Source: an uncultured virus (IMG/VR IMGVR_UViG_3300010001_000023)
Lineage: Duplodnaviria; Heunggongvirae; Uroviricota; Caudoviricetes
IMG/VR virus record: IMGVR_UViG_3300010001_000023
Location: 62,001 to 126,000 of that record
Direction: 5' to 3' (one strand)
DNA: 64,000 nucleotides
The notes under the pieces are model-generated. The model searched no databases. It was not told the origin of the DNA and saw only the letters and a program-made list of their open reading frames with translations. Positions within the stretch are counted from its first letter, which is position 1, and each line of letters starts with the position of its first letter. Shown here one piece after another: positions 38,980 to 56,432 of this stretch. Position numbers and translations under genes: made by a program.

Positions 38980-39996
38980 TTAAAGATCAATGTCTAATTC
39001 TTCCAATGCTTCGGCATCATCTGAAAGATTATAGATTTCTGTTGTTTCTGTGGATTCATGATGTGCAAAATATTTTGATACAATTTTCATTTTCACACCT
39101 TGTTCCAATAAATAAGTAATACAACTTGCTTTGAAGATATGAGGTTGGATTCTTCTTCCTAAAATATGGGATAATGTATTTTCGCAGAAATAATTCGCCC
39201 ACGATGCGTTCATCACTCTAGGATTCTCTTTGTCACCGATTGTAAAGATATATTCATGATCATATCCTCTTTTTTCAATCCAAAGCTCAATATACCTTAA
39301 AGCTTCAGGGTAGAAGAGATATTCCAAACGTTTGCCTTCTTCGCCTCTCCCTTTTCCCCTTATAGGTAAGTGTTTTTTGTACCCACCTTTTTTAAATTCT
39401 TGTGATAAAATGCTTGTTTTAAACTGTACGATTTCTGAACGTCTCGCACCAACATTAAAGGCTACTGCTAACCATGCCATACCTAAATAATCTTCATCAC
39501 TCTCTAAAGCTTGCATCATAATGTCATACTCTTCTTTAGAAATTTTAACCTTATCATAAGTCTGAGTTTTCAAGACTGGGGGAAGTCCTTGCATAAAATT
39601 ACGAAAAGTTTCAAAAATCAATTCACCATTATTATCTGTATAATCATCCACCCAATAGTTTTCTATATATTGACATAGGGAAGATACCGCAGACTTCTTT
39701 AAATTGATACCTGAAGATGACATTCCTCTGTCCACTCGTAAATAATTCAAATAACGAATCGCATCACGTTTTTTAATCTTGTTAAATGGTTTGTTGTTGG
39801 CACTGTTTTTAATAAACCAACCAAACTGCTTTAAAGCAGAGATATATTGTTTCTCTGATTGTTTAGATAATTGAGCCGATTGTAAGAATTCTTCAACAGC
39901 TTCTTTATATAAAGGATCAACCTGTGACCACATTTCATCTGTCACGTCAGGTAATTTTTTAGCTCTCTCACGTAACATATTCTTCTCAATTGTCAC
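38980..39996 (-). CDS. Tyrosine recombinase/integrase-family protein within the tail operon
   Basis: GARRSEI, RGKG, PHIFKAS, AHHESTETTEIY. Confidence 0.88.
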   Translation of the reverse strand: MTIEKNMLRERAKKLPDVTDEMWSQVDPLYKEAVEEFLQSAQLSKQSEKQYISALKQFGWFIKNSANNKPFNKIKKRDAIRYLNYLRVDRGMSSSGINLKKSAVSSLCQYIENYWVDDYTDNNGELIFETFRNFMQGLPPVLKTQTYDKVKISKEEYDIMMQALESDEDYLGMAWLAVAFNVGARRSEIVQFKTSILSQEFKKGGYKKHLPIRGKGRGEEGKRLEYLFYPEALRYIELWIEKRGYDHEYIFTIGDKENPRVMNASWANYFCENTLSHILGRRIQPHIFKASCITYLLEQGVKMKIVSKYFAHHESTETTEIYNLSDDAEALEELDIDL

Positions 39997-41017: not shown

Positions 41018-41102
41018 ATTCCATTCTCCTTTTAATCCGTGTTGATTTTTTATTTTTGTTTAACTTACATAAGCAATATATAAATTAAACAAAAATAAAA
41101 AA

Positions 41103-41124
41103 ACAGGTAGAATAAACTACCTGT
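41103..41124 (-). terminator. Terminator after the major tail gene and its extension
   Basis: ACAGGTAG-6 nt-CTACCTGT followed by a T run on the - strand. Confidence 0.75.
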
Positions 41125-41208
41125 CTCTTATATTTCAATAGTAACTGAATCGCTATTTACTTCAACCACGTTAACCTTTAAAGGTTCCTGTTTCGCAACA
41201 GGATTACT

Positions 41209-41928
41209 TCATACTTCTTCGTGGTCTACGAATACGAAGTTACCCATTTCACGAGTTTTAGTGTCTAATGAAGCTTTAAGAGTCATTTCAGGAGTGAAGG
41301 CTGAACCAGCTTCAAATCCCATTTCAAACTCAGAAGATGGAGTAACGTTTTCAAACAAGATGTAAACATCTTTAACGATTGCTTCAGTTTCCATATCGTA
41401 TGCATAAGTAAATAACTGAGCTTTGTATTTCTCAGCGAACTTATCAGAACGCATTGGAATTGTTTGACCAGTTACATCTTTTTCGTAGACAGCTGCAACA
41501 GTAGAACCTACTTCTAAATCTGGTACAGTAAGTTCACCAGCAGTAGCTTCACCAGTAAAGTTTTTACCTTCTTTATCTGAAACAACGACTGAACCAGAAT
41601 AAGCTGAATCTTTCAATGTTACTTTACCGCCAGCTTCAACTTCAACACGGTCAGTTTGCAATACTTTAACTGTTTGGTCTTCAAGTACTTTAACACCTTG
41701 TGTAGCAGCTAACCAGTTAGTACTGAATGTAGCATCTGTTACTGAGATTTCGATTTCTTTACCAGATTTAATTGTGTAAAGTGTACCGTTACCGATACCA
41801 CCTTTAATTGCTTCTTCTTCAACTGTTTGGCTGATAGAAGCACTTTGAGTTGTGCCAGTAGCGATAGTAAAACCATCACTTTTTCTTTTTAATGTAACAT
41901 CTGCTGTATCTTGAATATATAATGGCAT
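41209..41928 (-). CDS. Major tail (tube) protein; possible read-through form ending at 41128
   Basis: 239 aa, acidic and beta-rich, strongly biased codons, RBS GGAGG; position after the neck genes. Confidence 0.8.
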   Translation of the reverse strand: MPLYIQDTADVTLKRKSDGFTIATGTTQSASISQTVEEEAIKGGIGNGTLYTIKSGKEIEISVTDATFSTNWLAATQGVKVLEDQTVKVLQTDRVEVEAGGKVTLKDSAYSGSVVVSDKEGKNFTGEATAGELTVPDLEVGSTVAAVYEKDVTGQTIPMRSDKFAEKYKAQLFTYAYDMETEAIVKDVYILFENVTPSSEFEMGFEAGSAFTPEMTLKASLDTKTREMGNFVFVDHEEV

Positions 41929-41967
41929 ATTCGTATTTCCTCCTATAAAATGTTTTTATAATTTATT

Positions 41968-42786
41968 TTATTTAACGTAACCGCTCATTGAATTTGTGAA
42001 TTGTTCAAGTGACTGATCTTTATTCCTGTTTTTGTTTGTACTAATATTAGTAGTCCATGCGACAGGTTCAACCTCATCTGATACAGTTCTGAATAGCGTT
42101 CTTTCACTGTTCGCAATAAACAAGCCGATACGTTGAAATGAATGTTGTAATTGCAATGAATTCCATTTAGCTATATCTTTGTAATCAATCCCCATGTGTA
42201 CTGCACATGAAGAAATCATAGTAGATAAATTAGGCGTTTCATCGTCTTCTTTTGATTTAGTTTTTGGCTTATCCTCTCTTTTATAGAGGACAGGGTTAAT
42301 CTTTGAAGTAATCTCAGATACACCATTTAGCTGTAACAATATACGTCTATAACTATCAAAAGCTTCATCTGAAAGATTGATAATAAAATCAGCACTCTTC
42401 ATTAATAAATCCTTGTTATATTCTTCTTCGTTCTCGTAATCTTCTTTAGTATCTTCTAAGTAATAGAACTTACAATAACAAGTAATAATAATATAATGAT
42501 TTAAAATTTCAGTGAAATATTCTTTTAACAGTGATAAGAATGTATGTGAATTATTTAATTCTGTCAGCAAATTAAAAACTTCTTTATCTGACTGACCTGT
42601 TTCAGCTTGTTGCCCTTTACCTAATTCTGCGAGTACCTTCTTCTTATCCATTGCAATAACACCTAAAGAAGTTGATCTTTGTATATACTCCTGTATGGAT
42701 AATGGCTTCATCTCACCAAACTCAGTAATGATAGGTAGACCTAATATCGCTCTTTCTTCAATAGATGAATTATTCATATAAATCAC
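41968..42786 (-). CDS. Hypothetical virion morphogenesis protein
   Basis: 272-aa ORF in the neck/tail operon. Confidence 0.6.
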   Translation of the reverse strand: MIYMNNSSIEERAILGLPIITEFGEMKPLSIQEYIQRSTSLGVIAMDKKKVLAELGKGQQAETGQSDKEVFNLLTELNNSHTFLSLLKEYFTEILNHYIIITCYCKFYYLEDTKEDYENEEEYNKDLLMKSADFIINLSDEAFDSYRRILLQLNGVSEITSKINPVLYKREDKPKTKSKEDDETPNLSTMISSCAVHMGIDYKDIAKWNSLQLQHSFQRIGLFIANSERTLFRTVSDEVEPVAWTTNISTNKNRNKDQSLEQFTNSMSGYVK

Positions 42787-43316
42787 CTCTGTTGATTCGT
42801 GATAATATATTTTTGTTCAAAGGCTAGGTATTCTTTTGGAGCTTCTCTTTTAAATGAGCGACCTGTTCTAGTCTGCCCGATACCTCCAATTCGTTGTCCT
42901 ACAAACAAAGTGTCTAATCTATCACAAATTTCCTCTATGCGGTAGTCAAATGAAAAGTCATTATGAGAAAGGATGGTGAATATTAACTCTCTTTCAGTTA
43001 GCATACGATTTCCGAACACTGGTACTGATTTACCTAAATAAACAAATATCACCGTCTTTTTAGTCTCAATGATATCATCAGCTTTTTCAGATTTTCGTAT
43101 TAAATCATTCGCAATTTCCTCAAACTTATCAGTTTCAAATTCAGTGACATTCGGTAAATTTTCATCTCTGAAATCAACATAATTATCATTGGCATCTTTA
43201 GGATTGTAATAAAGCAACCTCATTAAATGTTCATCTTGTTTCATAATGTTGATATACTTTTGAATAATGTTACCTCGACCATAAATTTTAAAATTATGTT
43301 GTGACATTTGTTTCAC
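42783..43316 (-). CDS. Putative tail terminator/neck protein
   Basis: Position; RIEEICDRLDTLF helix typical of the family. Confidence 0.5.
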   Translation of the reverse strand: MKQMSQHNFKIYGRGNIIQKYINIMKQDEHLMRLLYYNPKDANDNYVDFRDENLPNVTEFETDKFEEIANDLIRKSEKADDIIETKKTVIFVYLGKSVPVFGNRMLTERELIFTILSHNDFSFDYRIEEICDRLDTLFVGQRIGGIGQTRTGRSFKREAPKEYLAFEQKYIITNQQR

Positions 43317-43959
43317 TTACTTTCTGTGCTGACAACACGATATAACCTTTTTCATTAATAACTTTATCTAGTTGAATATCTGTAATTTTGTACTCATCGT
43401 TAAATATATTAAATTGATGATTCAAAGGAATCTGTTTAATATAATTTGGTTGATATTGCATATAGATTACGATTCGCCCCTCAGCTAAAGGTAAAATTGC
43501 ATTGTCTGCAATAGAATAGCCTTTCACATCGACTACAATAGGCACTTCTTTTGTAACATATTCATACTTATAAGTTGTTCCTCTTGATCCAACCACAGGA
43601 ATCTTACGAGTTTCGATAGGTACTAAGAATGTGTCATTACATAGTTTTCCGTATAAATTAGGGTAAATGTCATCATCATTAGTCTTCATAATCAGATAAG
43701 TATAATTTCTATATTTAACATAGTTCCCAATGTCAGCTAATGGTGATTCAGGCTCAAGTAAAAAAGTCCTATCAAAATAGTCTCTTTGATAATTTGATAC
43801 AATAGCCTGTGTCTCAGTCTCATTAATTGTCACCTTGTATAAAGTAGGGGAGTTTAACACAAATCTACGTGCAGCATCAATAGAAAAGTTTCTTGTATGC
43901 TCTGGTATAGAAGTACCATAAGGTGTGTTCATGGCTTTATATCTATCAAGATAATCCAT
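43294..43959 (-). CDS. Putative head-closure protein
   Basis: Position in the neck cluster; beta-rich. Confidence 0.5.
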   Translation of the reverse strand: MDYLDRYKAMNTPYGTSIPEHTRNFSIDAARRFVLNSPTLYKVTINETETQAIVSNYQRDYFDRTFLLEPESPLADIGNYVKYRNYTYLIMKTNDDDIYPNLYGKLCNDTFLVPIETRKIPVVGSRGTTYKYEYVTKEVPIVVDVKGYSIADNAILPLAEGRIVIYMQYQPNYIKQIPLNHQFNIFNDEYKITDIQLDKVINEKGYIVLSAQKVSETNVTT

Positions 43960-44278
43960 CTTCGACAACACCTTTCTCACGATCAATCATATTAATCATT
44001 GAGAATACTTGAGTCCTGACTCTTGCTACAGCTTCATTACTATGCAACTCTTTAATAGAGTAGTCTTCATGAAATGTATAAAGTGAACTCATCACCTTAA
44101 CATACCATGCTGTCTCCGTCTCCAATACACATGGATATACTTTAGGAAGTCCTTTAAGTTCATGTATTAATGATTCCAGATACTTGTCAATATAATTATT
44201 CTTTTCTTCGCATAACGGTAGAATTTTAAATACTCTGTTCTTTAACTCCTCAAGGTAAACAGCATATACTTTATCCAT
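43946..44278 (-). CDS. Hypothetical neck-cluster protein
   Basis: Overlaps both neighbours. Confidence 0.55.
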   Translation of the reverse strand: MDKVYAVYLEELKNRVFKILPLCEEKNNYIDKYLESLIHELKGLPKVYPCVLETETAWYVKVMSSLYTFHEDYSIKELHSNEAVARVRTQVFSMINMIDREKGVVEDGLS

Positions 44279-44711
44279 TGTTTTTGTCTCTCATTCTAAA
44301 TTTCTGCCTGAAACTATATGAGTTCTTTTTAGCATCAACTAATGATTGATATTTAGACTTAGTATCTTTTAATTCCTTGAGTAAAGCAGCTTGAGAGTAT
44401 GTTTTGTAATCCTTTGAGTTCAATTGAATACGCATGTTATCTTCCGAGATAATAAACTTATCTAGGTAGTTGACAGCCATCAACAATGCGATAATTTCTT
44501 CTTCTTCCACAGATAAAGTTTCAACAAATTCCGAAGCAACACCGTTGTCAGTGAACAATAATTTATCCTCAGATAATTCTGGAAAATAGGCTAAAGCACT
44601 GATAAGCTTTGACTGTAAATCAGCTTCTAAAACTGACTTATCTATCTGTGCAATAGAGAAGTCTGTAATTTTAGATAAAAATTTGTCATAAATCGAAGTA
44701 AATTTTGTCAA
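44271..44711 (-). CDS. Putative head-tail adaptor
   Basis: Helical 146-aa protein two genes after the capsid gene; RBS AGGAGG. Confidence 0.55.
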   Translation of the reverse strand: MTKFTSIYDKFLSKITDFSIAQIDKSVLEADLQSKLISALAYFPELSEDKLLFTDNGVASEFVETLSVEEEEIIALLMAVNYLDKFIISEDNMRIQLNSKDYKTYSQAALLKELKDTKSKYQSLVDAKKNSYSFRQKFRMRDKNNG

Positions 44712-44732
44712 GAGCTTCTCCTCCTAACAAGA

Positions 44733-45272
44733 TTAAGAATTCAAAACTGAGTGTACTTTATCAATCTTAAGAGCTTCCTCAAAAGCCTTGATTAAGTGTA
44801 TGTCTGCGATTTCACCATTTGCGTATCTTTGTCTTAATACAGTGGCTACTACTTCTTTAGTAGTATCAGTTAAAGTTGGGATAGTTTCTAATATTTCATT
44901 TGGATCTGACTCGAATAAAAGATCAATTTTATCTTCTAACAAGATACCAGTCATTTCTTTTTCAAGACCTAGATATTTAACAACATCCTCTTCTTCAATC
45001 CAAAGCCATCCATTCTTAAACACATTTCGATCTGTATTTTTCAAAACAGTTAAATCTTCGACAGTCATCCAGTCGGAATCCATAAAATTTGATAGTTCTA
45101 AATAACCGTTACCTTTTTTAGCTGAATAATAGAAACTAGAAGTAGTCGCATTATAGACTAATACTTCAGTGTCTTTACTCACTTGCGGTCTTTTTTTGGT
45201 AACTGGCTCAGTTGTTTTTTCTACTTTATTTTCTACTGTTTCTTCAGTAGCAGTTGTTCTTTTAACAGCCAT
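44733..45272 (-). CDS. Hypothetical virion protein
   Basis: 179 aa, directly after the capsid gene terminator. Confidence 0.6.
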   Translation of the reverse strand: MAVKRTTATEETVENKVEKTTEPVTKKRPQVSKDTEVLVYNATTSSFYYSAKKGNGYLELSNFMDSDWMTVEDLTVLKNTDRNVFKNGWLWIEEEDVVKYLGLEKEMTGILLEDKIDLLFESDPNEILETIPTLTDTTKEVVATVLRQRYANGEIADIHLIKAFEEALKIDKVHSVLNS

Positions 45273-45304
45273 ATTACTTTCTCCTTTTACTCTTTAAAAA
45301 TAAG

Positions 45305-45328
45305 AAGGCTAGGAATTAACCCAGCCTA
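45305..45328 (-). terminator. Terminator after the major capsid gene
   Basis: AGGCTGGG-TTAATT-CCTAGCCT followed by a T-rich tract. Confidence 0.65.
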
Positions 45329-45334
45329 AAATAA

Positions 45335-46336
45335 TTATGATAATTCAATGACACCAAATTTAGCAGCAGATACTACAGACACACCAGCGATTTGGATGAT
45401 GTCGTGTTGCATTTGCATATCTTGACGGTTGTTTTCTGTACCATTAGCTTCACGAACGAAAGTTTGACCTAAGTAAACTTTAACGATTTTTTGAGCAGCA
45501 GCAGGTAATACAAGGATTTGCTTGTCATTAAGAGCGAACTCATCAGTAAGAGCTTTGTGGAATTGTGGTAATTCCAATACTTGGTATCCATCAACCATGC
45601 CAAAGAATCCTTTAACATTGCGTTCTCCAGCTTGAGCATCTGAGAAATATTCAGGTTTCAGTTTACGAAGTGCAGCTTTTGTACCAACTAATAAAGCTTG
45701 TCCATTGTCAGCTTCCACATGGTCAGCAACTTCCAGAGCTTTTTCACGGATTGCATCTACACCTGAAGAAGAAGCGATTGACTGCTTGTAAACACCAGTT
45801 AATCCATCAACAGAAGCAGCAAATGCTTGAGCAATACGAGAGAAGTATTCGTTAACGATAGAATCAGCAGCACGTTGAACGAATACTGACCAATCTGTTT
45901 GACCAGCTAAGAAACGAACTAACTCTTCGTATGTACCTACAGAAATAGCTTCAACTTTGATAGAGAAGTCTTCTGAATCTAAACGATGACGAGTTACGTT
46001 TCCGTTACCCAATGAAATAGTATTAACAGGGAAAAGTGACAAATCGTCAACGTGGAACATATTTTCTTCGTTCAAAGCGATAGATTTAAATTCAGCAAAT
46101 TGACCAAACACTTCTTTTGTACGATCATTAACGATAGGTGTAATAGTTTCTTCGATGAAAGCGAACAATTCATCTTTATGTTTACGGTAAGCCTGCATTG
46201 TTAATTTGTCAGTACCAAAACGAGTAATCATTGCTTGACGGATTACTTCAGAACCATCTTTCGCTGAGTATTGTTGTACGTTGCCTTTAGCTACATCTTT
46301 AGCTAAAGCAACAATGTTATTATCTAGTAAAGTCAT
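45335..46336 (-). CDS. Major capsid protein
   Basis: 333 aa, highly biased codons, strong RBS; order portal-protease-decoration-capsid as in SPbeta-like phages. Confidence 0.85.
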   Translation of the reverse strand: MTLLDNNIVALAKDVAKGNVQQYSAKDGSEVIRQAMITRFGTDKLTMQAYRKHKDELFAFIEETITPIVNDRTKEVFGQFAEFKSIALNEENMFHVDDLSLFPVNTISLGNGNVTRHRLDSEDFSIKVEAISVGTYEELVRFLAGQTDWSVFVQRAADSIVNEYFSRIAQAFAASVDGLTGVYKQSIASSSGVDAIREKALEVADHVEADNGQALLVGTKAALRKLKPEYFSDAQAGERNVKGFFGMVDGYQVLELPQFHKALTDEFALNDKQILVLPAAAQKIVKVYLGQTFVREANGTENNRQDMQMQHDIIQIAGVSVVSAAKFGVIELS

Positions 46337-46376
46337 TATTTATTTTCCTCCATATGTATGTATAATTTATTTTTTA

Positions 46377-46811
46377 TTACTTGAATTTGCGGATTTGGTA
46401 AGCAGGGCGACGGTCAATACCGATTGTACGAACTAAGTCTACAACATAGTCGCCAGCAGCATCTTTAGCAAGCTTTCCTGCTGTGACAGCAAGAACGTCT
46501 CCAGCTACAAAGCCAGTAGCATGTAATTTTTGTTCAACAGTTACAGTATCGCCTTTTTCAAGTTGGTGAACACGCATAACGTCTCCAGCTTGGTTAGTGT
46601 AATCGAAACCTTTAGTTGTATCTCCAGTTGTATATTCAACAGTAGATACTAAGTATGCGTTATCAGCAGCAGCTTCAACAGCTTGGTGTAAACGACCTTC
46701 GCCTTCTACTAAGTTTCCTAGACCAACAAACTCACCATTCTCGTAAACTTTGTCAGCTTTTACTGATTCTACTCGTGCATTGTGTACAGCAGTTAATTCT
46801 AATTTAGCCAT
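46377..46811 (-). CDS. Putative head decoration protein
   Basis: 144 aa, Ala/Gly/Val-rich, highly biased codons, immediately before the capsid gene. Confidence 0.65.
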   Translation of the reverse strand: MAKLELTAVHNARVESVKADKVYENGEFVGLGNLVEGEGRLHQAVEAAADNAYLVSTVEYTTGDTTKGFDYTNQAGDVMRVHQLEKGDTVTVEQKLHATGFVAGDVLAVTAGKLAKDAAGDYVVDLVRTIGIDRRPAYQIRKFK

Positions 46812-46840
46812 TATTTATTTTCCTCCGATATATTTATAAT

Positions 46841-48187
46841 TTATTTTTTAAGATACTGTTTAAAAATTCCACCGTATACGTCAGACTCTTCTTTAGAGTT
46901 ATCTAACGCTGTAAATACAGGTGCAATATCTGTATCTTCAATTTGTTTAGTTTCAACTTCACCAGTTGATAATTTTTTACCAATGATAGAGAAGATGTGC
47001 AATTCAGTATCTTCTACTGATAATTCTTTAGCTTTTAATGTAGAAATTTCATCTGGAGTCAGATTATCCTTGTGTTTGCTGAATAATGCATTAACCTCTT
47101 TTTCACGAATCTCTTTTTTCAAGCTAAACAATTCATTTTCTAAACGAGTTTTTTCAGTAAGAATATCTTCCAATTCTTTCGCAGAGTACTCGTTATCCAA
47201 AACTGTAATACGGTCAATTACTGATTCTTGTTTTTCTGCATCTTCACGTTGTGCTTTATGTACCTCAGCCAATGTATCAACATCTTCTTCAACTACAATA
47301 TTAACGTGATCTTTAGTGTCAAGATTCTCTTCTTTCTTTTCTTCAGCTTCCTCAGCAACTTCTTCTTTTACTTCAGCCTTTGCAGCAGCTTTTTTACGTG
47401 CTGGCTTTTTAGTTTCAGTCTCTTCAGTTTTTACTTCTGCTTCGACTTTTTCTTCAGCTTCTTTGGCTTCAACAAATTCTGTTTCAACTTTTTCTTCTTT
47501 AGCCATAGTTCCTCCTTCTTCTTCATTCTTTGTAAATGAAAGATTATATAAATTTATTTTTTCATCAATATAATTTTTTGCCTTTTGCGTAAAGATCATT
47601 TCAACCGTACTATTTTCCATAGCAGGCATTTCATCCTTCCCTAAAAGGCAAGCACCATTGAATTTAAAATCAGTAAACTCAAATTTACCATTCGAGAAAT
47701 TACCAGAATATTCACTAGCTAGTTCCATTGATTGTCCAGTAGCACCTGATTTATTCATAATAATATCTACCGCATCATCCCACTTGTTCCAAAGTAATCC
47801 TTCACAAGTCAGATATTCACGTTCAATACCATCATCACATAATCTCATTTCAAATTGTGCATTGTTGTCAGTCGGGATCACTCCATACGGAATCGTCTTA
47901 TTGACTAACTTCAACTCACCATCTTCACTAACATTTAATTCAATCTCATGTCCTTGAAAATCTTGTTGATCCTCTGAATTGAAACCAACACTTCCCACGA
48001 TAGGTGTGTTAGATAAAGTAGGAATAGCACGTTCTACAACTTCCTTAGTGAAAACAGAGCCATTATGGTTTAAACCTAAGTGCATCAACCATATCTTAAC
48101 TCTAGTAAAACGAGTGTCCTCACCAACAGAAAATTCTTGTAAAGGTTGAGTCATCATTGGCACAACATTGTTAACATAGTTAATCAT
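46841..48187 (-). CDS. Prohead protease/scaffold protein
   Basis: GLNHNGSVF, GQSMEL and FNGACLLG N-terminal domain plus Glu/Lys-rich scaffold tail. Confidence 0.75.
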   Translation of the reverse strand: MINYVNNVVPMMTQPLQEFSVGEDTRFTRVKIWLMHLGLNHNGSVFTKEVVERAIPTLSNTPIVGSVGFNSEDQQDFQGHEIELNVSEDGELKLVNKTIPYGVIPTDNNAQFEMRLCDDGIEREYLTCEGLLWNKWDDAVDIIMNKSGATGQSMELASEYSGNFSNGKFEFTDFKFNGACLLGKDEMPAMENSTVEMIFTQKAKNYIDEKINLYNLSFTKNEEEGGTMAKEEKVETEFVEAKEAEEKVEAEVKTEETETKKPARKKAAAKAEVKEEVAEEAEEKKEENLDTKDHVNIVVEEDVDTLAEVHKAQREDAEKQESVIDRITVLDNEYSAKELEDILTEKTRLENELFSLKKEIREKEVNALFSKHKDNLTPDEISTLKAKELSVEDTELHIFSIIGKKLSTGEVETKQIEDTDIAPVFTALDNSKEESDVYGGIFKQYLKK

Positions 48188-48190
48188 ATT

Positions 48191-49750
48191 TTATTTTTCA
48201 CCGCCTTTTAATGCACTAGAATCAGAATCACGATTAGTTTGTCCACTATCACTTAATTCCTTACTATCCTTTTGTGGTCTTCCACCTTCATCTTGAGTAG
48301 CGGAATTCATACCACCAGTGTAAGAACTAGCAAGTGGAATCATATTAATATCTAAATCAAGAATATTGTTTTCGAGTTCTAATGTATTAGCCAGTGTATG
48401 ATAATCTTGTCTATGCATAGCAGCAATCTTACCTCTTACAGCAAATCCTAATGAACCAGCAGTGACCAATTGATCTAAATACTCTTGTTCACTAAAACCA
48501 GTTACATCTAATAACGTAATCTTCCAATTATTTTTGGTTACAATATCTTTAGAATATTTAATCTTACGATTCAACCAGCGTTCAACCTGTCTATAAAAAT
48601 CAATGACTAAATGTTCATCTTTTCTTAATGATGAAGCTAATCCACCTGTAGAGTTTTTATCATTATTAAACAAGAATGAAGATACACCAGACGAATTATA
48701 TACGTCTCTCAACGCTTCTGATACTTTATCCCCGTTATCATTCTGTTCTAATTTAATAGAGCTAATTTCCATAGGTGAGACGATTGCCCCTATCTCTGGA
48801 GGTAAACTTTCCTCAACCATATATTGAAAATAATCCACTGATTCTGTTGAGATAGAATAATTATCAGGTTGATAATCACCTTTATTATTGTCAAACATAG
48901 GAACTTTCTGATGTAATAACATATAGTTATTAATTTTAGCTCCTGCTTTCTTTAACTTCTTATAATCATTAAGTTCCAACAAACTACCAATAACCATTGA
49001 AAATGGTGGTATAATATCCAGTGTATCTTCATCAAATTTGAAACATACACTTCTCGTAAAAGTAGGGGAGAACCATCTATCTACTTCTTTCATGGTATAT
49101 AGCTTATAAGCTAATATAAACTCTGGAGGATAAGTGTCTATTAATCCTTTTCGAGTGTCAAAATAAGCTAGATTAAATTGAAATACATACATACCATCTG
49201 ACATTCCGATAATCCTACAGTAATCTGAATCTAATCTCAAAATGAAGTAGTTATTGCTATCTTCAACTTCGTAGCCAAAGAATACATCTTCAATTACACA
49301 TGTTTTAAATGCTTTTTTTAATTCATGTGGAAGATTCATTTTATTTAATTGTTGTGAGATAGCTCCCAACTCTTTTTTTACCGTGGATTTAACCATTTTT
49401 TGACTCTTATCATGAATAGGGTCAATACTATAATAGAATCGAGACATATTGACGAAATAATTGATTAGAGACTTATATTCACCTGATGAGCGATACAGTC
49501 TACGTGATAAAGCTCTTAGTTCATTAGAAGAATTACTAGGATTTTTAATCCATTTATTCAACTGCTCTAAACTAATATCATCTAATGCTTGTATATTATT
49601 CTTATATAAAGCGGAAAGAGAGGAAGTCACATTCAAAGGAATCGTGATATTCTTTTCTTTAAAGTATTTGGTGAAACTATCACTGTTTTCTTTTGCTCTT
49701 TGAATACGTGTTAGTTCTAAATTTGAATCCTCTTTATTTTCTGTCATCAT
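48191..49750 (-). CDS. Portal protein
   Basis: 519 aa directly after the terminase; C-terminal GGRPQKD motif. Confidence 0.85.
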   Translation of the reverse strand: MMTENKEDSNLELTRIQRAKENSDSFTKYFKEKNITIPLNVTSSLSALYKNNIQALDDISLEQLNKWIKNPSNSSNELRALSRRLYRSSGEYKSLINYFVNMSRFYYSIDPIHDKSQKMVKSTVKKELGAISQQLNKMNLPHELKKAFKTCVIEDVFFGYEVEDSNNYFILRLDSDYCRIIGMSDGMYVFQFNLAYFDTRKGLIDTYPPEFILAYKLYTMKEVDRWFSPTFTRSVCFKFDEDTLDIIPPFSMVIGSLLELNDYKKLKKAGAKINNYMLLHQKVPMFDNNKGDYQPDNYSISTESVDYFQYMVEESLPPEIGAIVSPMEISSIKLEQNDNGDKVSEALRDVYNSSGVSSFLFNNDKNSTGGLASSLRKDEHLVIDFYRQVERWLNRKIKYSKDIVTKNNWKITLLDVTGFSEQEYLDQLVTAGSLGFAVRGKIAAMHRQDYHTLANTLELENNILDLDINMIPLASSYTGGMNSATQDEGGRPQKDSKELSDSGQTNRDSDSSALKGGEK

Positions 49751-49762
49751 TGTCCTCCTTTC

Positions 49763-51298
49763 CTAGATTACTGATTTTGGTTTTCTGAATTTACCGAACA
49801 TTTTTGGATTAGCAACTACTCCACCTTTATATAGGTCTCGCTCTAATTCAGTCGCTAAATGATTACCCATAGATACCGAAGAATATCTATCCTTACGGGC
49901 AGTTCCAGTAGTAACCAATTTAAACGAACCTCCATCCATTATAACTTGTTCTAAGTTCATAGCTTCTCCTATGAAGTACTCAGTCTGACGATAAGGATAT
50001 TTTATTAATGCTCTTATTCCTTCTTTAAGGTCTAAATATTTTAATTTTTTATTTAATATCATTTGTTCTTCCGCCACATTCTCTTGAATTAATAATCTGA
50101 AACGACCACGCATAAAAGCATCCGCAAGATTCTCAGCCATCTTCATATTTAATTCATTTGTAGCTCTAATAACATATATCACTTTTTTAGCTTCAGGATG
50201 TTTACATTCAGCAGCTAAATCAGGGTCGTTCATTACGTTTAAAGGGTCATACTCTGTACCACGCTCTGTATCAGGTAAGTACCGTCTTAAATTATCCAAC
50301 ACACCCATACCAACGTTTTTACTATCAAGCACAATATAGTCACATTCAAAATCATGGTACAACTGTTGAACTCTTATTGCCTGAGTCTCAAAGTCAACAC
50401 CTTCCATATCTTGCATGTAACATAGTTGACGTTCATAATATTTACCTTTGTTAATTAATCTAAGCAAACTAAATACAGAAGCATCATTTGCATTACCACC
50501 CATACGTGCCACATCGACAGCAAGTATTCTGATTTCTTTAGGTTCTTTAGGTGGATTGGTTATATTGGTATGTTCAGTTACTTCTTTAGGATAAAAAGCT
50601 TGATCTATTTTTCTATTCATATCAATCTTATTAAAGTTAAAGAAAGCTGCTTCTGATTCTCCCCACCAACGAGCTTCCATCTCCATAGCAAACTTCATTT
50701 CATTAAAGCCTTCTTGTTGTGCTTCGGCTTTCATTTGTTTATGTGAGTAAAGTTTTTCTTTGACACCAGTATAGTAAGGGATGTGACAAACAAATGTCTG
50801 TAAAGCATCTTTTGATTTCTTCTTCGTCATCTGCTTCACATAGCCTTTCATTGTGTTGTAAGACCAATGAGACTTCATCCATGCTGATGATAAATACATT
50901 TGCATATTTTCCTCACGGGGGTAATCTCTATATTCCTCTTTTTTATAGAAGTTGGGTTCACGTTGAGAGGTTAACATTTTCTTAAATACTGTATCAATAG
51001 TGTCTGCATCTACTTTAACAAACTCATCAACAAGTAATAGGTTAGCACGATGACCACGAGCATTATCAGTAGAAGCTACGACACGAATCCAACTTCCATT
51101 ACGAAACTCTATCATAGGTTTTTGATTACCTGTGTTAATATAAGTGATTTCACGTTGTAGTAGGGGGGACATAATTTCATTCTCTATTTTTTCTAAAACG
51201 TTGATACCTTGAGACTTCACGGGTGCGGTAATAATAATCTTAGTACTAGGAAACAGCACACATCTAGTAACACAATATACAGCAGAAAGAAAGGATTT
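49763..51298 (-). CDS. terL: Terminase large subunit, exon 2
   Basis: Begins KSFLSAVY; ARGHRANLLLVDEF Walker B, YLSSAW, ILAVDVARMGG nuclease motif, KDRYSS. Confidence 0.92.
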   Translation of the reverse strand, partial: KSFLSAVYCVTRCVLFPSTKIIITAPVKSQGINVLEKIENEIMSPLLQREITYINTGNQKPMIEFRNGSWIRVVASTDNARGHRANLLLVDEFVKVDADTIDTVFKKMLTSQREPNFYKKEEYRDYPREENMQMYLSSAWMKSHWSYNTMKGYVKQMTKKKSKDALQTFVCHIPYYTGVKEKLYSHKQMKAEAQQEGFNEMKFAMEMEARWWGESEAAFFNFNKIDMNRKIDQAFYPKEVTEHTNITNPPKEPKEIRILAVDVARMGGNANDASVFSLLRLINKGKYYERQLCYMQDMEGVDFETQAIRVQQLYHDFECDYIVLDSKNVGMGVLDNLRRYLPDTERGTEYDPLNVMNDPDLAAECKHPEAKKVIYVIRATNELNMKMAENLADAFMRGRFRLLIQENVAEEQMILNKKLKYLDLKEGIRALIKYPYRQTEYFIGEAMNLEQVIMDGGSFKLVTTGTARKDRYSSVSMGNHLATELERDLYKGGVVANPKMFGKFRKPKSVI

Positions 51299-52475
51299 CA
51301 CTGTTGTTATCCTATAGGCTTTTTATCCTATAGTTCTATATATTTCTATATAGGTCAGCATACATTTTTATCTAAATTACATACTCAGTAGATAGGGAAC
51401 ACTCGTGGGGATGTTATAGATCTCGTAAAATGAGTTTCAATCCCTATGCGTTACGATACTTAAAGCTCTTTAATTCTCTAAGTTATCTCGGTATTACCTT
51501 CAACTAAATGGTCAGGCTTTCACCGATATTGCTCCCTACATTACACTACATTGACTGAGTTTACTGTAGTGTACGAGCTTTGTTTTAATATTAACTTTTG
51601 TTTTTTAATTTTTATAAATTTATTCGCTAAAATAAGTTTTCTGTCTAAATATGGGTATGAAATATCTGTGTATATCAATTCTAAAAATTTTAAAATTGAG
51701 CTATGATCTACAAATAATCTTTGTTTTTTAGAATTTTCTTGATAGTTTGAGCATTTTATCCCTTTTGATTCAAGGAACTCTTGTACCTTATCTAAAAATA
51801 CATTTGAGTAAGCTGTGAAATGACAAGCTCCATTCTTATCAATACAACCATCTCCATCAAAAAAACCTCTGATTATAGCAATGTTAATTTCATCACTATA
51901 GCAGAGGTCTGGAGACACTGTTTTATAAGTTTTATTTTGTAGAAGATTTTTGTTTTCAAGGTCTACTGCCATTTCTTTTGAGTAAAGCCTTATTTGACAA
52001 ATCTCAGTTCCACGAACAATTTGCCCTGTGGATTTGATTACACTGTCTTTTGAAATAAAAGTGGTTATTGGCACATCACCATCTAAAGAATGTTTAAATT
52101 TCTCTAGGTGTGCAATATCTTTTGCTGCTAGTTCTATAGATACTTCTGAAGTAGTAGGTGTGTTGATTATATACCCGTCAGCGTAAAGAAAACCAAACCA
52201 GTAGGCTACTTCTTTAGAGTTAATCTCTTTGAAGTATCTTCTATTAAAAGTATGGTGGTAATTCTCTCGGTACCATCCTTTGTTGTTTGCTCTGCCTTGA
52301 ATTTGTCTTTTCGTAAATTTTTCAAATCCATATTTTTCGTTAATTATTTTAGCTATTTCAGAGTGAGACATAGTGCCAACACTGTTTTTAATGAATAAAT
52401 CTTCTTCTTTACTAAAAATACTAGGTCTTGGCATATTCTCACTCCTTTATTTAATTTTTAAGTTAATATTTCAAA
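51299..52475 (-). mobile_element. Group I intron in terL (1177 nt) with a homing endonuclease in the P1 loop
   Basis: Removal restores Walker A SRGLG|KS in frame. Exon 1 ends in U and the intron ends in G. P1 (52460-52480 with 51574-51597, U.G at the splice site), P3 GGGAGCA/TGTTCCC and P7 GCATA/TATGC are visible. Confidence 0.92.
51541..52434 (-). CDS. Intron-encoded LAGLIDADG homing endonuclease
   Basis: Two motifs, AYWFGFLYADGYI and AIIRGFFDGDGCI; own RBS AAAGGAG. Confidence 0.92.
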   Translation of the reverse strand: MPRPSIFSKEEDLFIKNSVGTMSHSEIAKIINEKYGFEKFTKRQIQGRANNKGWYRENYHHTFNRRYFKEINSKEVAYWFGFLYADGYIINTPTTSEVSIELAAKDIAHLEKFKHSLDGDVPITTFISKDSVIKSTGQIVRGTEICQIRLYSKEMAVDLENKNLLQNKTYKTVSPDLCYSDEINIAIIRGFFDGDGCIDKNGACHFTAYSNVFLDKVQEFLESKGIKCSNYQENSKKQRLFVDHSSILKFLELIYTDISYPYLDRKLILANKFIKIKKQKLILKQSSYTTVNSVNVV

Positions 52476-52745
52476 ACCCAAACCTCTCGATCCCAAAAAC
52501 ATAAAATATTGATTATTAATCATTGCCCAAAGCAATACACACTGGAACGGTCTCAAATTAATACCCATGAAGTCTAATACAAATCTATGTGGATTAGCTC
52601 TGTAAAAAGCTATCCATTTCGCTATGTTTTCCATTGACTCCTGAGACTTTGTTTTTTCTTTTTTATGATTTCTTCTTATTTTAAATAAATCAATTTGATG
52701 ACTATAATTGTGCATATTAGTGTTTGAATTCTTATCAAAAGGCAT
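52476..52745 (-). CDS. terL: Terminase large subunit, exon 1
   Basis: FYRANPHRFVLDFMGINLRPFQ (Q motif)...FLGSRGLG. Confidence 0.9.
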
Positions 52746-53638
52746 TATTCATCACCTTCGATTCCCAATAAATCCTCTTTAGATATTCCGTATTGTTCCT
52801 GATAGTCTAAGTATTCTGATTCATTAGGATTTTCCATGTCTAAGGATTTTAACATTGGGTATAAAAAGTCTTCTCTAATCGCTTTACGAATTCCGTCTAC
52901 ATCAGCGAACATAGGTAAAGGCTCAGGGACAGGTTGTTCGTTTTCCCAAATTCTTACCCACATTCCAAACGACTGTTGTTCATTCGTTTTGTTAGCTTTT
53001 TCTTGTGATGGAGCGATACCAGCACTACGCATAACTTCAAGTTGTAACTTAGTTTCTTTAGTAGTATCTATACCAGCAGCACGTTTTTTCTTAATATCTA
53101 AATCTAACTGGCATATTTGAGCTATATTACTTTCCATTGTAGGTGAGTCAACATCATAAGTATTCAAGTATTTCTCATACATAGCCATTAAGAATAAATA
53201 ATCATCTTCAGTGTAATTTCCAACTCCCCAGAACAACTGACAATCTCGTAGCTCTTCTGGTGTTAAGCTTTCAATAGTATCCTCATTAATAGACATTACT
53301 TTTCCATTAAATAGATCTTCTGAATCAAGGAATTCTCCTGATACTTTTTTCATTCTATTTGTTATCGTAGTTAAATATAAACCACGATCAAAATTACATT
53401 CTTCAAAAATTTCTTGTATAAAAGGTCTATTTAAAACCATTAGTATTTTCAGAAAAGTTTTATGACCTGCTAATTCATCGTTGACTAATTTCTTACAACA
53501 ATCTTTGCAAACTGGATATAAGTTATCAGCAAACGCTGGGTCTGTTCCGTTGATTGAATAGTAATTTTGTGTGATAACTAAATTACGATTGCAACTAGAA
53601 CAAGCTTTTTTTTCTGATTTCTTTCTTGTTACAGCCAA
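52745..53638 (-). CDS. Putative terminase small subunit with N-terminal zinc finger
   Basis: CSSC...CKDC; stop overlaps the terL start. Confidence 0.6.
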   Translation of the reverse strand: MAVTRKKSEKKACSSCNRNLVITQNYYSINGTDPAFADNLYPVCKDCCKKLVNDELAGHKTFLKILMVLNRPFIQEIFEECNFDRGLYLTTITNRMKKVSGEFLDSEDLFNGKVMSINEDTIESLTPEELRDCQLFWGVGNYTEDDYLFLMAMYEKYLNTYDVDSPTMESNIAQICQLDLDIKKKRAAGIDTTKETKLQLEVMRSAGIAPSQEKANKTNEQQSFGMWVRIWENEQPVPEPLPMFADVDGIRKAIREDFLYPMLKSLDMENPNESEYLDYQEQYGISKEDLLGIEGDE

Positions 53639-53861
53639 TAATTCTCACTTCTTTTCTATTCAATTTTTGTTCGGTAGACAAATGTTTATCTAACCAACAA
53701 AAATCCATCCTCTGAATAGGATGGATTTAAGAAAGGGAGAGTTTTCTTTGGAAAAAGAATTCATGGGAATTGAGTGTTAAACACTCAAAACTATACTCAG
53801 TTAACTACCAAATATAGTTTTCAATGTTTAATTCTTTTGAGATAAAATTTACCTTTTATTG

Positions 53862-53890
53862 TTGACTTTTTATAATTTATCTAGTATTAT
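53862..53890 (+). promoter_or_regulatory. SigA-like promoter antisense to the late operon
   Basis: TTGACT-17 nt-TATTAT; shares 17 nt with the promoter at 60029-60057. Confidence 0.5.
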
Positions 53891-53954
53891 GATATATGTA
53901 GAAGTCTGAAACAAAATAAAGGTGACATAAAAAAAATGCCACCAAATAAAGATG

Positions 53955-55103
53955 CTAAATTTTTAAATAGGTTTCTATTAATGGAATAATTTGATCTAAT
54001 ACCTCTTGTTCAGTCATTCCTATACTTCCTTCTGACCAAAAAGTTAAAGCAGTACCTCTAAACTTATCAGTCTCTACAACTTCATAGGTATTATCATAAT
54101 GACAAACAGATTCAACTTTATATTTACTAACAATAAAATCTTGCTGCCATTCAATATCTCCCATTTCAAATTTTGATTGAGGAAGGAATACTAATGAGTA
54201 AAAATTACAATTGTACAAATTGTAACCTGCATCACCAATAGCTTGAGCAGTAAGTCCATAATCATTACCCTCAGAAGTGTAAGATTGTTTCCAATAAAGG
54301 ACACCAATATTTTTCTTTAAATTCGGTAGTCCAGATTTTAAACAATCATTCCACATCGTTACTTTATATCCTTGAGACTCTACAACATCAGAATAATGAT
54401 TCATAAAGTTAACAAATGAATCTTGACTGGATGAAGCTCCAGCAACTTCATCTCCACCTATGTTAAATCTTTGGTTAGGAATATCTGTTTGCCTAAACAT
54501 TTTTGCGACTTCTTCTATCATAGGTCTTAACGCTTCAACTACAGTACTGTAATCCCAATAATTTAAAACACTGTCGCTAAAATCACTTTTAACTGTGGTT
54601 GCTAAAGTAGGATCTTTAAGAGTTAATAAATCTAACCAACCTTTAGAATGTGCAGGCATATCGAAATCAGGAATGATCATTACTTTATTAGCACTGCAAT
54701 ATCTAACTAATTCAGACACTTCATCTTTAGTTAAATATTTACCATTATTTAAAGTGGCATCATTTTGTCCTAAGAAATCTGAAGCAATAGTAAAACCATC
54801 ATTATCAGAGAAATGAAGCTGTAAATACTCACCACCATATGCAGCGATAGTATCAACCACAATCTTAATTGCCGACAAGGAATAATATCTTCTTGCTACA
54901 TCTAAAATGACTCCACGTTCTTCTTTAGTTTTAAAAGCAGGGGATTTAACATTATTTACTCCATTGTTAATAGTAAATAAACCTTCTTCATAGTTCTTAT
55001 AAGGTGTTAATCCTTCTAATTTAATCTGTGTTTTACCATTGGTATTTTTTGCAATTCTTTTAATCTCTGTACCTTGCGAACTAAGTATATATTCTTCAGT
55101 CAC
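53955..55103 (-). CDS. GH20 beta-N-acetylhexosaminidase (dispersin-B-like) with an N-terminal partial Fn3/Ig-like segment
   Basis: RGVILDVARRYY, YLQLHFSDNDGF, IIPDFDMPAHS, catalytic FNIGGDE, MWND, VLYW, FWSE. Confidence 0.88.
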   Translation of the reverse strand: MTEEYILSSQGTEIKRIAKNTNGKTQIKLEGLTPYKNYEEGLFTINNGVNNVKSPAFKTKEERGVILDVARRYYSLSAIKIVVDTIAAYGGEYLQLHFSDNDGFTIASDFLGQNDATLNNGKYLTKDEVSELVRYCSANKVMIIPDFDMPAHSKGWLDLLTLKDPTLATTVKSDFSDSVLNYWDYSTVVEALRPMIEEVAKMFRQTDIPNQRFNIGGDEVAGASSSQDSFVNFMNHYSDVVESQGYKVTMWNDCLKSGLPNLKKNIGVLYWKQSYTSEGNDYGLTAQAIGDAGYNLYNCNFYSLVFLPQSKFEMGDIEWQQDFIVSKYKVESVCHYDNTYEVVETDKFRGTALTFWSEGSIGMTEQEVLDQIIPLIETYLKI

Positions 55104-55740: not shown

Positions 55741-55745
55741 TGAAG

Positions 55746-55818
55746 TCAGAATACTAGGATTTGAACCTAGACTACTACATCCCAAATGTAGCGTGTTACC
55801 AAATTACACTATATTCTG
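55746..55818 (-). tRNA. tRNA-Pro(UGG)
   Basis: Acceptor CAGAATA/TATTCTG, anticodon arm CTACA-TTTGGGA-TGTAG, T arm CTAGG-TTCAAAT-CCTAG; CCA not encoded. Confidence 0.92.
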
Positions 55819-55906: not shown

Positions 55907-55979
55907 TGTGAGATAGCAGAATCGAACTGCTGTAATCCGAACCACAATCGGATGTATTAACCACTATACTAATCTCACC
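55907..55979 (-). tRNA. tRNA-His(GUG)
   Basis: G-1, acceptor GTGAGAT/ATCTCAC, anticodon arm TCCGA-TTGTGGT-TCGGA, T arm AGCAG-TTCGATT-CTGCT. Confidence 0.92.
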
Positions 55980-55989
55980 ATAATAAAAG

Positions 55990-56432
55990 CAAACAGGGTG
56001 GTCGAGAGCTATCCGTTACAAGGTGGTCATCCAGTGAAGCCAACTTCTTTATAATCACCCTATACACTTGACGAGAGTGTTCTGTTTCGGGGTAATAACC
56101 ACAGTAACCTGTTTACATTCATTAAGCTATATTTAGTGTGGCTGCTTTGCCACCATTACGCTACTTTTTCTTTCGGTTAATAACCTGTCTACCTTGAGGA
56201 CAAAGCATAAAACCCTTTCAAAACCTCCATTAACACTCATAGTAGACGAGCCTTAACTTCATCGGTTAACTTGAACTCATTGAACAAGTTTAAAACTTTT
56301 CGATTTTGGTGAGAATCGAGAACTCGCATTAGATAAAAGCATGATTTTAATAAGCACGAATAGGAAGGGTATCACCTATCGGGATCAACAGTCAGATATA
56401 ATGCTTCTGCCGAGCTACACCCAGTGCTTCTT
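55990..56432 (-). ncRNA. Candidate structured non-coding RNA(s) upstream of tRNA-His
   Basis: No ORF; closed multi-stem domains AAACAGG...CCTGTTT (55991-56114) and AAGCAC...GTGCTT (56352-56429). Confidence 0.5.

Follow-up and report, generated by a model that had tools for sequence, protein, structure and literature searches.

Can a phage display on its tail an enzyme whose gene lies far from its tail genes? This question is raised by an uncultured tailed virus (IMG/VR record IMGVR_UViG_3300010001_000023, 128,864 bp with direct terminal repeats), of which bases 62001-126000 were analyzed. This stretch of 64,000 nucleotides is referred to as the window, and coordinates are positions within it unless another locus is named. 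An initial annotation had drawn attention to a hidden extension of the tail-tube gene and to about 60 non-GH20 residues opening a glycoside hydrolase family 20 (GH20) gene, both of which were confirmed in place, and had read them as the two parts of one split fibronectin type III (Fn3) domain. We consider this explanation probable, at roughly 60%: a non-covalent tag-and-catcher system, in which read-through of a TGA codon would give a minority of tube subunits a hairpin of Fn3 strands A and B that docks a dispersin via its truncated Fn3 module. The elements concerned are the following.

41209-41928, minus strand: gene of the tail-tube (major tail) protein, 239 residues, an open reading frame (ORF) with its TGA stop at 41209-41211
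41131-41208, minus strand: 26-codon in-frame extension SNPVAKQEPLKVNVVEVNSDSVTIEI, candidate A-B hairpin tag (ORF reading and A-B profile), followed by TAA at 41128-41130
41098-41129, minus strand: terminator-like hairpin of 13 pairs and a subsequent T tract, beginning at the TAA of the extension
53955-55103, minus strand: GH20 gene, 382 residues, GTG start, an ORF beginning VTEEYILSSQGTEIKRIAKNTNGKTQIKLEGLTPYKNYEEGLFTINNGVNNVKSPAFKTK
54924-55103, minus strand: C-G module, GH20 residues 1-60, Fn3 without strands A and B, candidate catcher (homology and profile)
53955-54923, minus strand: GH20 catalytic domain, residues 61-382, of dispersin type, plus stop (Pfam, solved relatives, and AlphaFold 2 (AF2) model)
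53921-53943, minus strand: terminator-like hairpin after the GH20 gene

According to this proposal, most ribosomes would terminate at the TGA of the tube gene, while a small fraction would read it through, most likely inserting tryptophan and adding 26 residues. The last 18 of these would form a beta-hairpin equivalent to the Fn3 strands A and B. The GH20 protein, apparently made without a signal peptide, would start with an Fn3-like module reduced to strands C, C', E, F, and G, and the hairpin on the exterior of the tail tube would complete this module in trans to a single seven-stranded sandwich. On each tail, a few tube subunits would bear the enzyme, in a copy number governed by how leaky the stop codon is, and the displayed enzyme would cut the matrix of poly-N-acetylglucosamine (PNAG) in front of the phage.

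Identity of the tail-tube protein and the enzyme

A profile built from 20 relatives of the 239-residue protein matched the solved tail tube proteins 8K98_A (E 1.8e-71) and 9JGH_A (E 2e-71). The order of genes (tube gene, two chaperone-like ORFs, an integrase-like ORF, and the gene of a 2770-residue tape measure protein) is the same in annotated relatives. Based on this profile match and the gene order, the protein was assigned as the tail-tube protein; it corresponds to PHROG 2729, a virion structural protein. A tblastn search recovered it from 33 records (25 Bacillus, 4 Mammaliicoccus, 4 Staphylococcus) at 35-58% identity, and homologues are found in SPbeta-type phages. The best explanation for the window as a whole is an SPbeta-like siphophage of a staphylococcal-type host.

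The GH20 domain was recognized by Pfam (PF00728) on residues 63-359 with E 3.1e-31 and 109.4 bits versus a cut-off of 22.3, while residues 61-380 align to 8QAK (5.7e-77), to 8QB6, deposited as 'Dispersin' (3.6e-75), and to DspB, 1YHT (3.7e-29). The residues D218-E219, which we take to be the GH20 catalytic Asp-Glu pair, are invariant among 18 aligned relatives, and the AF2 monomer reaches a predicted local distance difference test score (pLDDT) mostly above 90 over residues 61-382. Judged by its solved relatives the enzyme is of dispersin type, in line with the earlier designation as a biofilm-degrading enzyme, and its substrate would be PNAG (poly-beta-1,6-GlcNAc). NCBIfam provided no name for either the tube protein or the GH20 protein, and no signal peptide was seen on reading the GH20 sequence.

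A truncated Fn3 module with varied cargo

The segment in front of the catalytic domain had been annotated as strands C-G of an Fn3 domain, and the profile comparison agrees. Searched against the PDB, the module profile matched fibronectin and other Fn3 domains, with its positions 8-68 aligning to residues ~38-95 of domains that are ~95 residues long. Since the alignment is confined to the C-terminal two thirds of these domains, the module can be described as an Fn3 domain devoid of its first ~30-35 residues, i.e., of strands A and B. No solved structure of the module itself was found. At the extreme N-terminus it displays the motif L..L.P.T.Y..G.F.....ES..V.VP.F.T, and alignment of the GH20 module with 37 family members showed Y38, F57, and T59 to be invariant and L32, G41, and P55 to be at least 90% conserved. 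In the AF2 monomer, pLDDT stays below 50 over residues 1-59, which fits an incomplete domain.

Homologous N-termini are carried by the GH20 proteins of the Twort-like myophages PSU6 and DH2, with the PSU6 protein matching the full length of the query (residues 1-382, tblastn), as well as by 'tail fiber' proteins of 575-623 residues combining collagen and GH20 parts, e.g., in PSU4. A search of 1.84 billion representatives, with a profile that includes the GH20 query itself, returned 154 proteins at E<=1e-3 and 43 at <=1e-10. Family members range from 72 to 1710 residues, mostly match at residues 1-82, and include stand-alone modules of 72-92 residues. In a Pfam scan of 60 proteins, the cargo behind the module comprised GH20, polysaccharide deacetylase, GDSL esterase, NAGPA, pectate-lyase-like, BNR, S11 peptidase, collagen with a tail-tip domain, and Big_2, and in none of the 60 was a Pfam family assigned to the module. 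The remaining matches are internal repeats of large multi-Fn3 proteins at profile positions ~20-66. From these sequence contexts the module can be regarded as an N-terminal adaptor with varied cargo. With the same profile it was found only once in the 128.9-kb genome, on GH20, and a tblastn search with the 62-residue module in 50,697 phage records yielded a single chance match (E 10).

A-B peptides accompany the module in staphylococcal phages

Both segments of the window are homologous to the parts of a pairing that recurs in staphylococcal phages, where a peptide with the pattern of strands A and B precedes a gene that begins with the C-G module. In phage K, ORF95 ends with ...APKNVQVTPKEDGADVSAE; 22 nucleotides further on, ORF96 consists of the module, a Big_2 domain, and the end ...APADVTVEPGENSADITV, and 14 nucleotides after ORF96 begins the gene of a bare 75-residue module (gp152). 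This phage K locus (L015, 2346-3755), like L016 and L017, could encode a chain from ORF95 via ORF96 to the 75-residue module. The same tag and module chain is present in the myophages PSU6 and DH2. Among 149 representatives of the module family, 11 carry an A-B peptide at their own C-terminus.

Siphophages offer a second arrangement. In the S. aureus Triavirus phiSa2wa_st5, the annotated tube protein has the C-terminus ...DSAGSLPS, translation of the +1 frame across the 3' end of its gene gives ...YPANPQNVEVAVNSKSATVSAE, and the following gene encodes the module plus Big_2. All 67 IMG/VR loci with a Triavirus-type module gene, many of them near-identical, possess an A-B peptide ORF that ends 24-233 nucleotides (mostly 33) upstream of the module gene. 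Ten loci at 45-51% identity to the query (L085-L094) retain the peptide in diverged form. In all 15 representative siphophage loci, spanning several different tube proteins of 198-233 residues, the peptide lies in the +1 frame and overlaps the end of the tube ORF. The initial annotation had pointed to staphylococcal siphophages whose major tail proteins end in such a peptide followed by a C-G gene; the succession was found, but the peptide belongs to the +1 frame of the tube gene and not to the annotated C-terminus. In each of these 15 loci (from L030-L094, about positions 880-965), the tube ORF ends ...TP*, ...SP*, or ...LPS* ahead of the +1-frame tag. These endings suggest that +1 shifting at a proline codon close to the tube-gene stop is conserved.

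The expected co-occurrence of tag and cargo in relatives was recovered in part. It holds for the pairs described above and for the SPbeta-like relatives NC_029119 and phi116 (PV389079), which have neither module nor tag; PSU6 and DH2 deviate from it, as discussed below. As a separate observation, residues ~279-296 of the PSU6 tail sheath (L099, 17688-19460) contain an internal stretch, EAPSNVEVEAGEESATVTS, scoring 20.9 bits with the tag profile. A module is not recognizable downstream of this stretch, which may represent either a docking site on the sheath or the beginning of an ordinary domain.

The extension behind the TGA codon

In its C-terminal part the extension reads …EPLKVNVVEVNSDSVTIEI. 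It fits the A-B pattern P..V.V....S..[VI][TS], its segment VNSDSVTIEI resembles the siphophage tag form ANSKSASITAE, and it stops directly after the second strand (strand B), as all other tags do. In form and exact end point it matches the A-B peptides that precede modules in staphylococcal phages, in agreement with the earlier reading. With an A-B profile built from 31 non-redundant peptides of other phages, to which this genome contributed none, the extension scored 11.2 bits and ranked first among 6019 six-frame segments of the 128.9-kb genome; a score of 11.2 bits was reached anywhere by 2 of 50 triplet-shuffled genomes. With an earlier and narrower profile, built from 15 peptides, the extension ranked third at 7.6 bits, both higher matches being antisense to genes, and here none of 20 shuffles reached this value (shuffle maximum 7.5). 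Because the tested place, the end of the tube gene, was fixed beforehand, the local chance of such a match is far smaller than the genome-wide figure. Neither A-B profile detected another sense-strand candidate in the genome, which has one module and one tag, a count in favor of the tag-and-catcher reading.

The position of the tag at the 3' end of the tube gene is shared with the 15 siphophage lineages, with the difference that it is in frame behind a TGA here and in the +1 frame there. Relatives of the tube gene carry an additional reading frame at the same place. In L022, L024, and L027 (about 1900-2250), a -1-frame ORF over the tube-gene stop encodes an acidic linker and an Ig-like domain, and the 3' end of this gene family can thus be viewed as a recoding site for tail decoration. 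The corresponding -1-frame ORF of phi116 (L004, 3700-3820) encodes a Pro/Glu-rich tail. Judged from sequence, these ORFs are likely to be reached by programmed -1 frameshifting that was left unannotated. C-terminal tails within the tube-protein family vary from 0 to 25 residues.

Decoding of the TGA as a sense codon would be in line with the general properties of this stop: in E. coli it is the leakiest one and mostly decoded as tryptophan (PMC11126739). The phage encodes only tRNA-Pro and tRNA-His, so that read-through would depend on the host tRNA-Trp. A similar leakiness of TGA, with tryptophan inserted, has reportedly been seen in B. subtilis.

Predicted binding and location on the virion

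Complementation in trans was the central element of the initial annotation, and the complex prediction supports it weakly. GH20 residues 1-66 together with the 26-residue peptide scored 0.49, while the best of three controls scored 0.05. In the benchmark, 116 of 157 solved complexes and 2 of 215 mismatched pairs attained the mark; at scores <=0.60, only 18 of the 157 solved complexes and both mismatches did so. These counts hold roughly for the present case, because the peptide is shorter than 30 residues and a custom 38-row alignment was supplied for the GH20 part. Contact agreement between the runs is at least 92%, with a partner pLDDT of at least 65.

An ORF96-type protein, in which module and A-B tail are part of one chain, was modeled with a mean pLDDT of 93.2, and its tail (90-95) forms two strands. 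The fold search with this model returned matches to its Big_2 domain (residues 67-153) and was uninformative on a composite Fn3. This Big_2 cargo superimposes on the lambda gpV domain with Z 14.4 and a root-mean-square deviation of 1.1 over 86 residues.

Members of the module family can be traced to virions. In a published study (PMC5923470, Table 3), matrix-assisted laser desorption/ionization time-of-flight (MALDI-TOF) analysis of intact virions assigned masses to an 'Ig-like domain' protein in the Triaviruses 3A, 42E, and 47, and reported Kayvirus virion proteins of 23,069, 17,718, and 7,818 Da. By their sizes the latter three would correspond to ORF95, ORF96, and gp152, respectively. Residues 2-175 of ORF95 are contained in the PDB entries 9ROX and 9ROZ, which do not include the tag, and no paper describing 9ROX was found. 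The 'stopper decoration protein' in the neck of phage 812 was considered as an ORF95 homologue and is probably not one, with ORF95 matching only 9ROX and 9ROZ, which are outside the entries of the phage 812 paper. We infer that the extension would bind GH20 and that GH20 would be located on the virion.

Weighing the alternatives

Several observations weigh against the tag-and-catcher reading. Open frames behind stop codons are common here, with at least 26 sense codons following the stop in 23 of 131 ORFs of at least 100 residues and in 3 of 20 ORFs ending in TGA; the open frame alone thus means little, and the content of the extension is its unusual part. Its 11.2 bits are modest compared with 16-44 bits for clear A-B members. 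None of 20 aligned relatives of the tube protein has the extension. The only other record carrying it among 12 IMG/VR loci, L018, matches at each of 3117 bases and consequently allows no evolutionary test. A scan of genome contigs turned up no relative, and tblastn of the 26 residues against the 50,697 phage records gave no match. A suppressor tRNA is not among the two tRNAs encoded by the phage. The complex prediction reports no interface and gives weak support for binding, and packing of the A-B tail onto the module in the ORF96-type model is presumptive. The low pLDDT of the GH20 module may come from a shallow alignment alone.

The pairing is likewise not free of irregularities. PSU6 and DH2 possess three modules, one of them on GH20, and two terminal A-B peptides; a GH20 module can hence exist without its own tag, and the pairing is not strictly one to one. 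In these Twort-like myophages the GH20 module occurs in the absence of this tail-tube protein. Every pair verified elsewhere is adjacent, whereas tube and GH20 genes are 12.7 kb apart; in place of a module gene directly downstream of the tube gene, chaperone-like ORFs follow, and the sole module lies upstream on GH20. Furthermore, the A-B profile gave no match of at least 6 bits in 38 multi-Fn3 proteins with 125 C-G matches. The label 'strands A-B' accordingly rests on pattern and position and not on profile homology to complete Fn3 repeats.

From these points the strongest rival can be built. The 26 codons might be untranslated 3' sequence that resembles an A-B peptide, with the GH20 module attaching elsewhere on the virion, to a different structural protein, or self-associating, as collagen-bearing (trimeric) family members might. 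The frequency of open frames, the score matched by two shuffled genomes, the myophage GH20 with a module and no dedicated tag, the collagen repeats in many family members, and the lack of a conservation signal from the identical L018 are all compatible with it. What speaks against it is that the best A-B match of the entire genome, and the sole sense-strand candidate, falls at the site used by 15 of 15 siphophage lineages, that a terminator abuts the TAA of the extension, and that the complex prediction passed, if weakly, with controls at or below 0.05. We regard this rival as unlikely, albeit worth keeping in mind.

A second rival places GH20 outside the particle, as a soluble enzyme freed at lysis or as a lysogen moron, whose module would be a carbohydrate- or wall-binding domain and not a virion anchor. 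The gene is located outside the tail module, between tRNA and packaging genes, and has its own terminator; Fn3-like and Ig-like domains often bind glycans; and the module alone is not confidently folded in the model. However, the same module heads proteins with a collagen stalk and tail-tip domain as well as small virion-detected proteins, a sandwich lacking two strands is an unlikely stand-alone binding domain, and a signal peptide for export from a lysogen was not seen in the sequence. Altogether, we consider this rather improbable.

A decaying stump of a former complete C-terminal Ig/Fn3 domain of the tube protein, now functionless, would be in keeping with the whole Ig-like domain added in L022, L024, and L027 and with the variable tails of the family, but is very improbable. 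The extension terminates precisely where strand B does, as is the case for functional tags elsewhere; TAA and the terminator come immediately behind it, and no remnant of additional domain sequence is seen; and it is Fn3-like while the relatives' domain is Big_2-like.

A possible general plug-and-socket principle

The tag-and-catcher reading of the window may be one case of something broader. Tentatively, and at somewhat less than even odds, we suggest that staphylococcal and related phages share a general non-covalent plug-and-socket system composed of A-B tags and of truncated Fn3 sockets heading dozens of cargo proteins. Tags would be exposed at C-termini or rationed by recoding, i.e., by +1 frameshifting or, as proposed here, by TGA read-through. 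The cargo would include depolymerases, esterases, Ig adhesins, and collagen fibres, and adaptors with both socket and tag would build chains such as ORF95 to ORF96 to gp152 in phage K. A cargo gene could then reside at any genomic position, have its product shown on tail, neck, or sheath, and be exchanged by horizontal transfer; in the present phage, the tail tube would be armed with a dispersin.

If true, this would show a route for phages to add and exchange surface enzymes without re-engineering their structural genes. It would account for the abundance of small 'Ig-like' proteins in staphylococcal virions and give a purpose to recoded tail-tube gene ends. Moreover, it would provide a natural counterpart to engineered tag-and-catcher pairs that could be used for loading cargo onto therapeutic staphylococcal phages. 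A PNAG-degrading dispersin on a phage tail would be relevant to the penetration of staphylococcal biofilms, and the tube gene would represent a bacterial-virus case of functional stop-codon read-through setting subunit stoichiometry.

Further features of the locus

A gap of 1.35 kb upstream of the GH20 gene hosts tRNA-Pro(TGG) at 55745-55818 and tRNA-His(GTG) at 55907-55978 (both minus strand) as well as an Rfam 'drum' small RNA match at 56158-56267 (minus strand; 59.8 bits versus a gathering score of 43). The integrase-like gene, encoding a tyrosine recombinase, is situated at 38980-39996 (minus strand), flanked by the tail chaperone-like genes on one side and the tape measure gene on the other, a position it also occupies in Staphylococcus phage SPbeta-like and Mammaliicoccus phage phi116. 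The large terminase is apparently split (49763-52745, minus strand): a 95-residue ORF (52458-52745) matches the first part of phrog_15503, a 512-residue ORF (49763-51301) matches its second part and terminase families, and a LAGLIDADG endonuclease ORF (51541-52434) lies between the two. The arrangement looks like an intron or a similar insertion carrying a homing endonuclease.

Comparison with known systems

The closest solved precedent is phage Tuc2009, in which, as described in the structural study (PMC4742702), a 25-residue C-terminal hairpin of BppU completes the beta-sheet of BppA domain 2, giving a composite titin-like domain in the crystal structure. In Tuc2009 a C-terminal hairpin of ~25 residues on a structural tail protein anchors a sugar-directed accessory protein, and the same is proposed here; the extension described here measures 26 residues and its putative acceptor is truncated. 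No sequence relation between BppU/BppA and the present pair was found. In Tuc2009 the donor is a baseplate protein made in full, whereas the donor here would be a tube subunit tagged via a leaky stop, and the acceptor domain is C-terminal with a carbohydrate-binding module as cargo, whereas here an N-terminal module would deliver an enzyme. By analogy, the proposed tag would be a new variation on a known anchoring principle. A study on the 80alpha baseplate (PMC7048315) concerns BppU-like Ig domains and not the C-G module.

Recoded ends of tube genes that add a whole Ig/Fn3 domain are known from SPP1 gp17.1* and TP901-1 TpeX, and lambda gpV has a C-terminal domain of this type. The window shares with them the idea of recoding at the 3' end of the tube gene, by which a minority of subunits would receive a surface decoration. 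It differs in that two strands would be added, with the remainder of the domain and the cargo coming from a separate gene; the decoration proposed here would be non-covalent and exchangeable, and its recoding a stop read-through instead of a frameshift.

With the A-B/C-G pairs of staphylococcal phages the locus has the module family, the form of the tag, and its end point in common, and the siphophage carrier is a tube protein as well. There, an adjacent partner gene carries Big_2 and the tag is reached by an apparent +1 shift; here, the partner gene is 12.7 kb away and carries an enzyme, and the tag would be reached by TGA read-through. Within the literature covered, which was partial, neither split A-B/C-G pairs of staphylococcal phages nor a read-through tag were found to be described, and the broader system seems to be undescribed.

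Regarding the enzyme, similarity to Dispersin B and other GH20 PNAG hydrolases (1YHT, 8QB6, 8QAK) is restricted to the catalytic domain. Their alignments start at residue 58-61 of the phage protein, and the N-terminal module has no counterpart in them. Cellular dispersins are secreted.

Finally, completion of an incomplete Ig-like fold by strands of another chain is the basis of donor-strand complementation in chaperone-usher pili and of the engineered SpyTag/SpyCatcher pair. The system proposed here would likewise be a tag and catcher operating by strand donation, with the differences that two strands would be donated, that no chaperone or usher and no covalent bond would be involved, and that the completed domain would be of another type.

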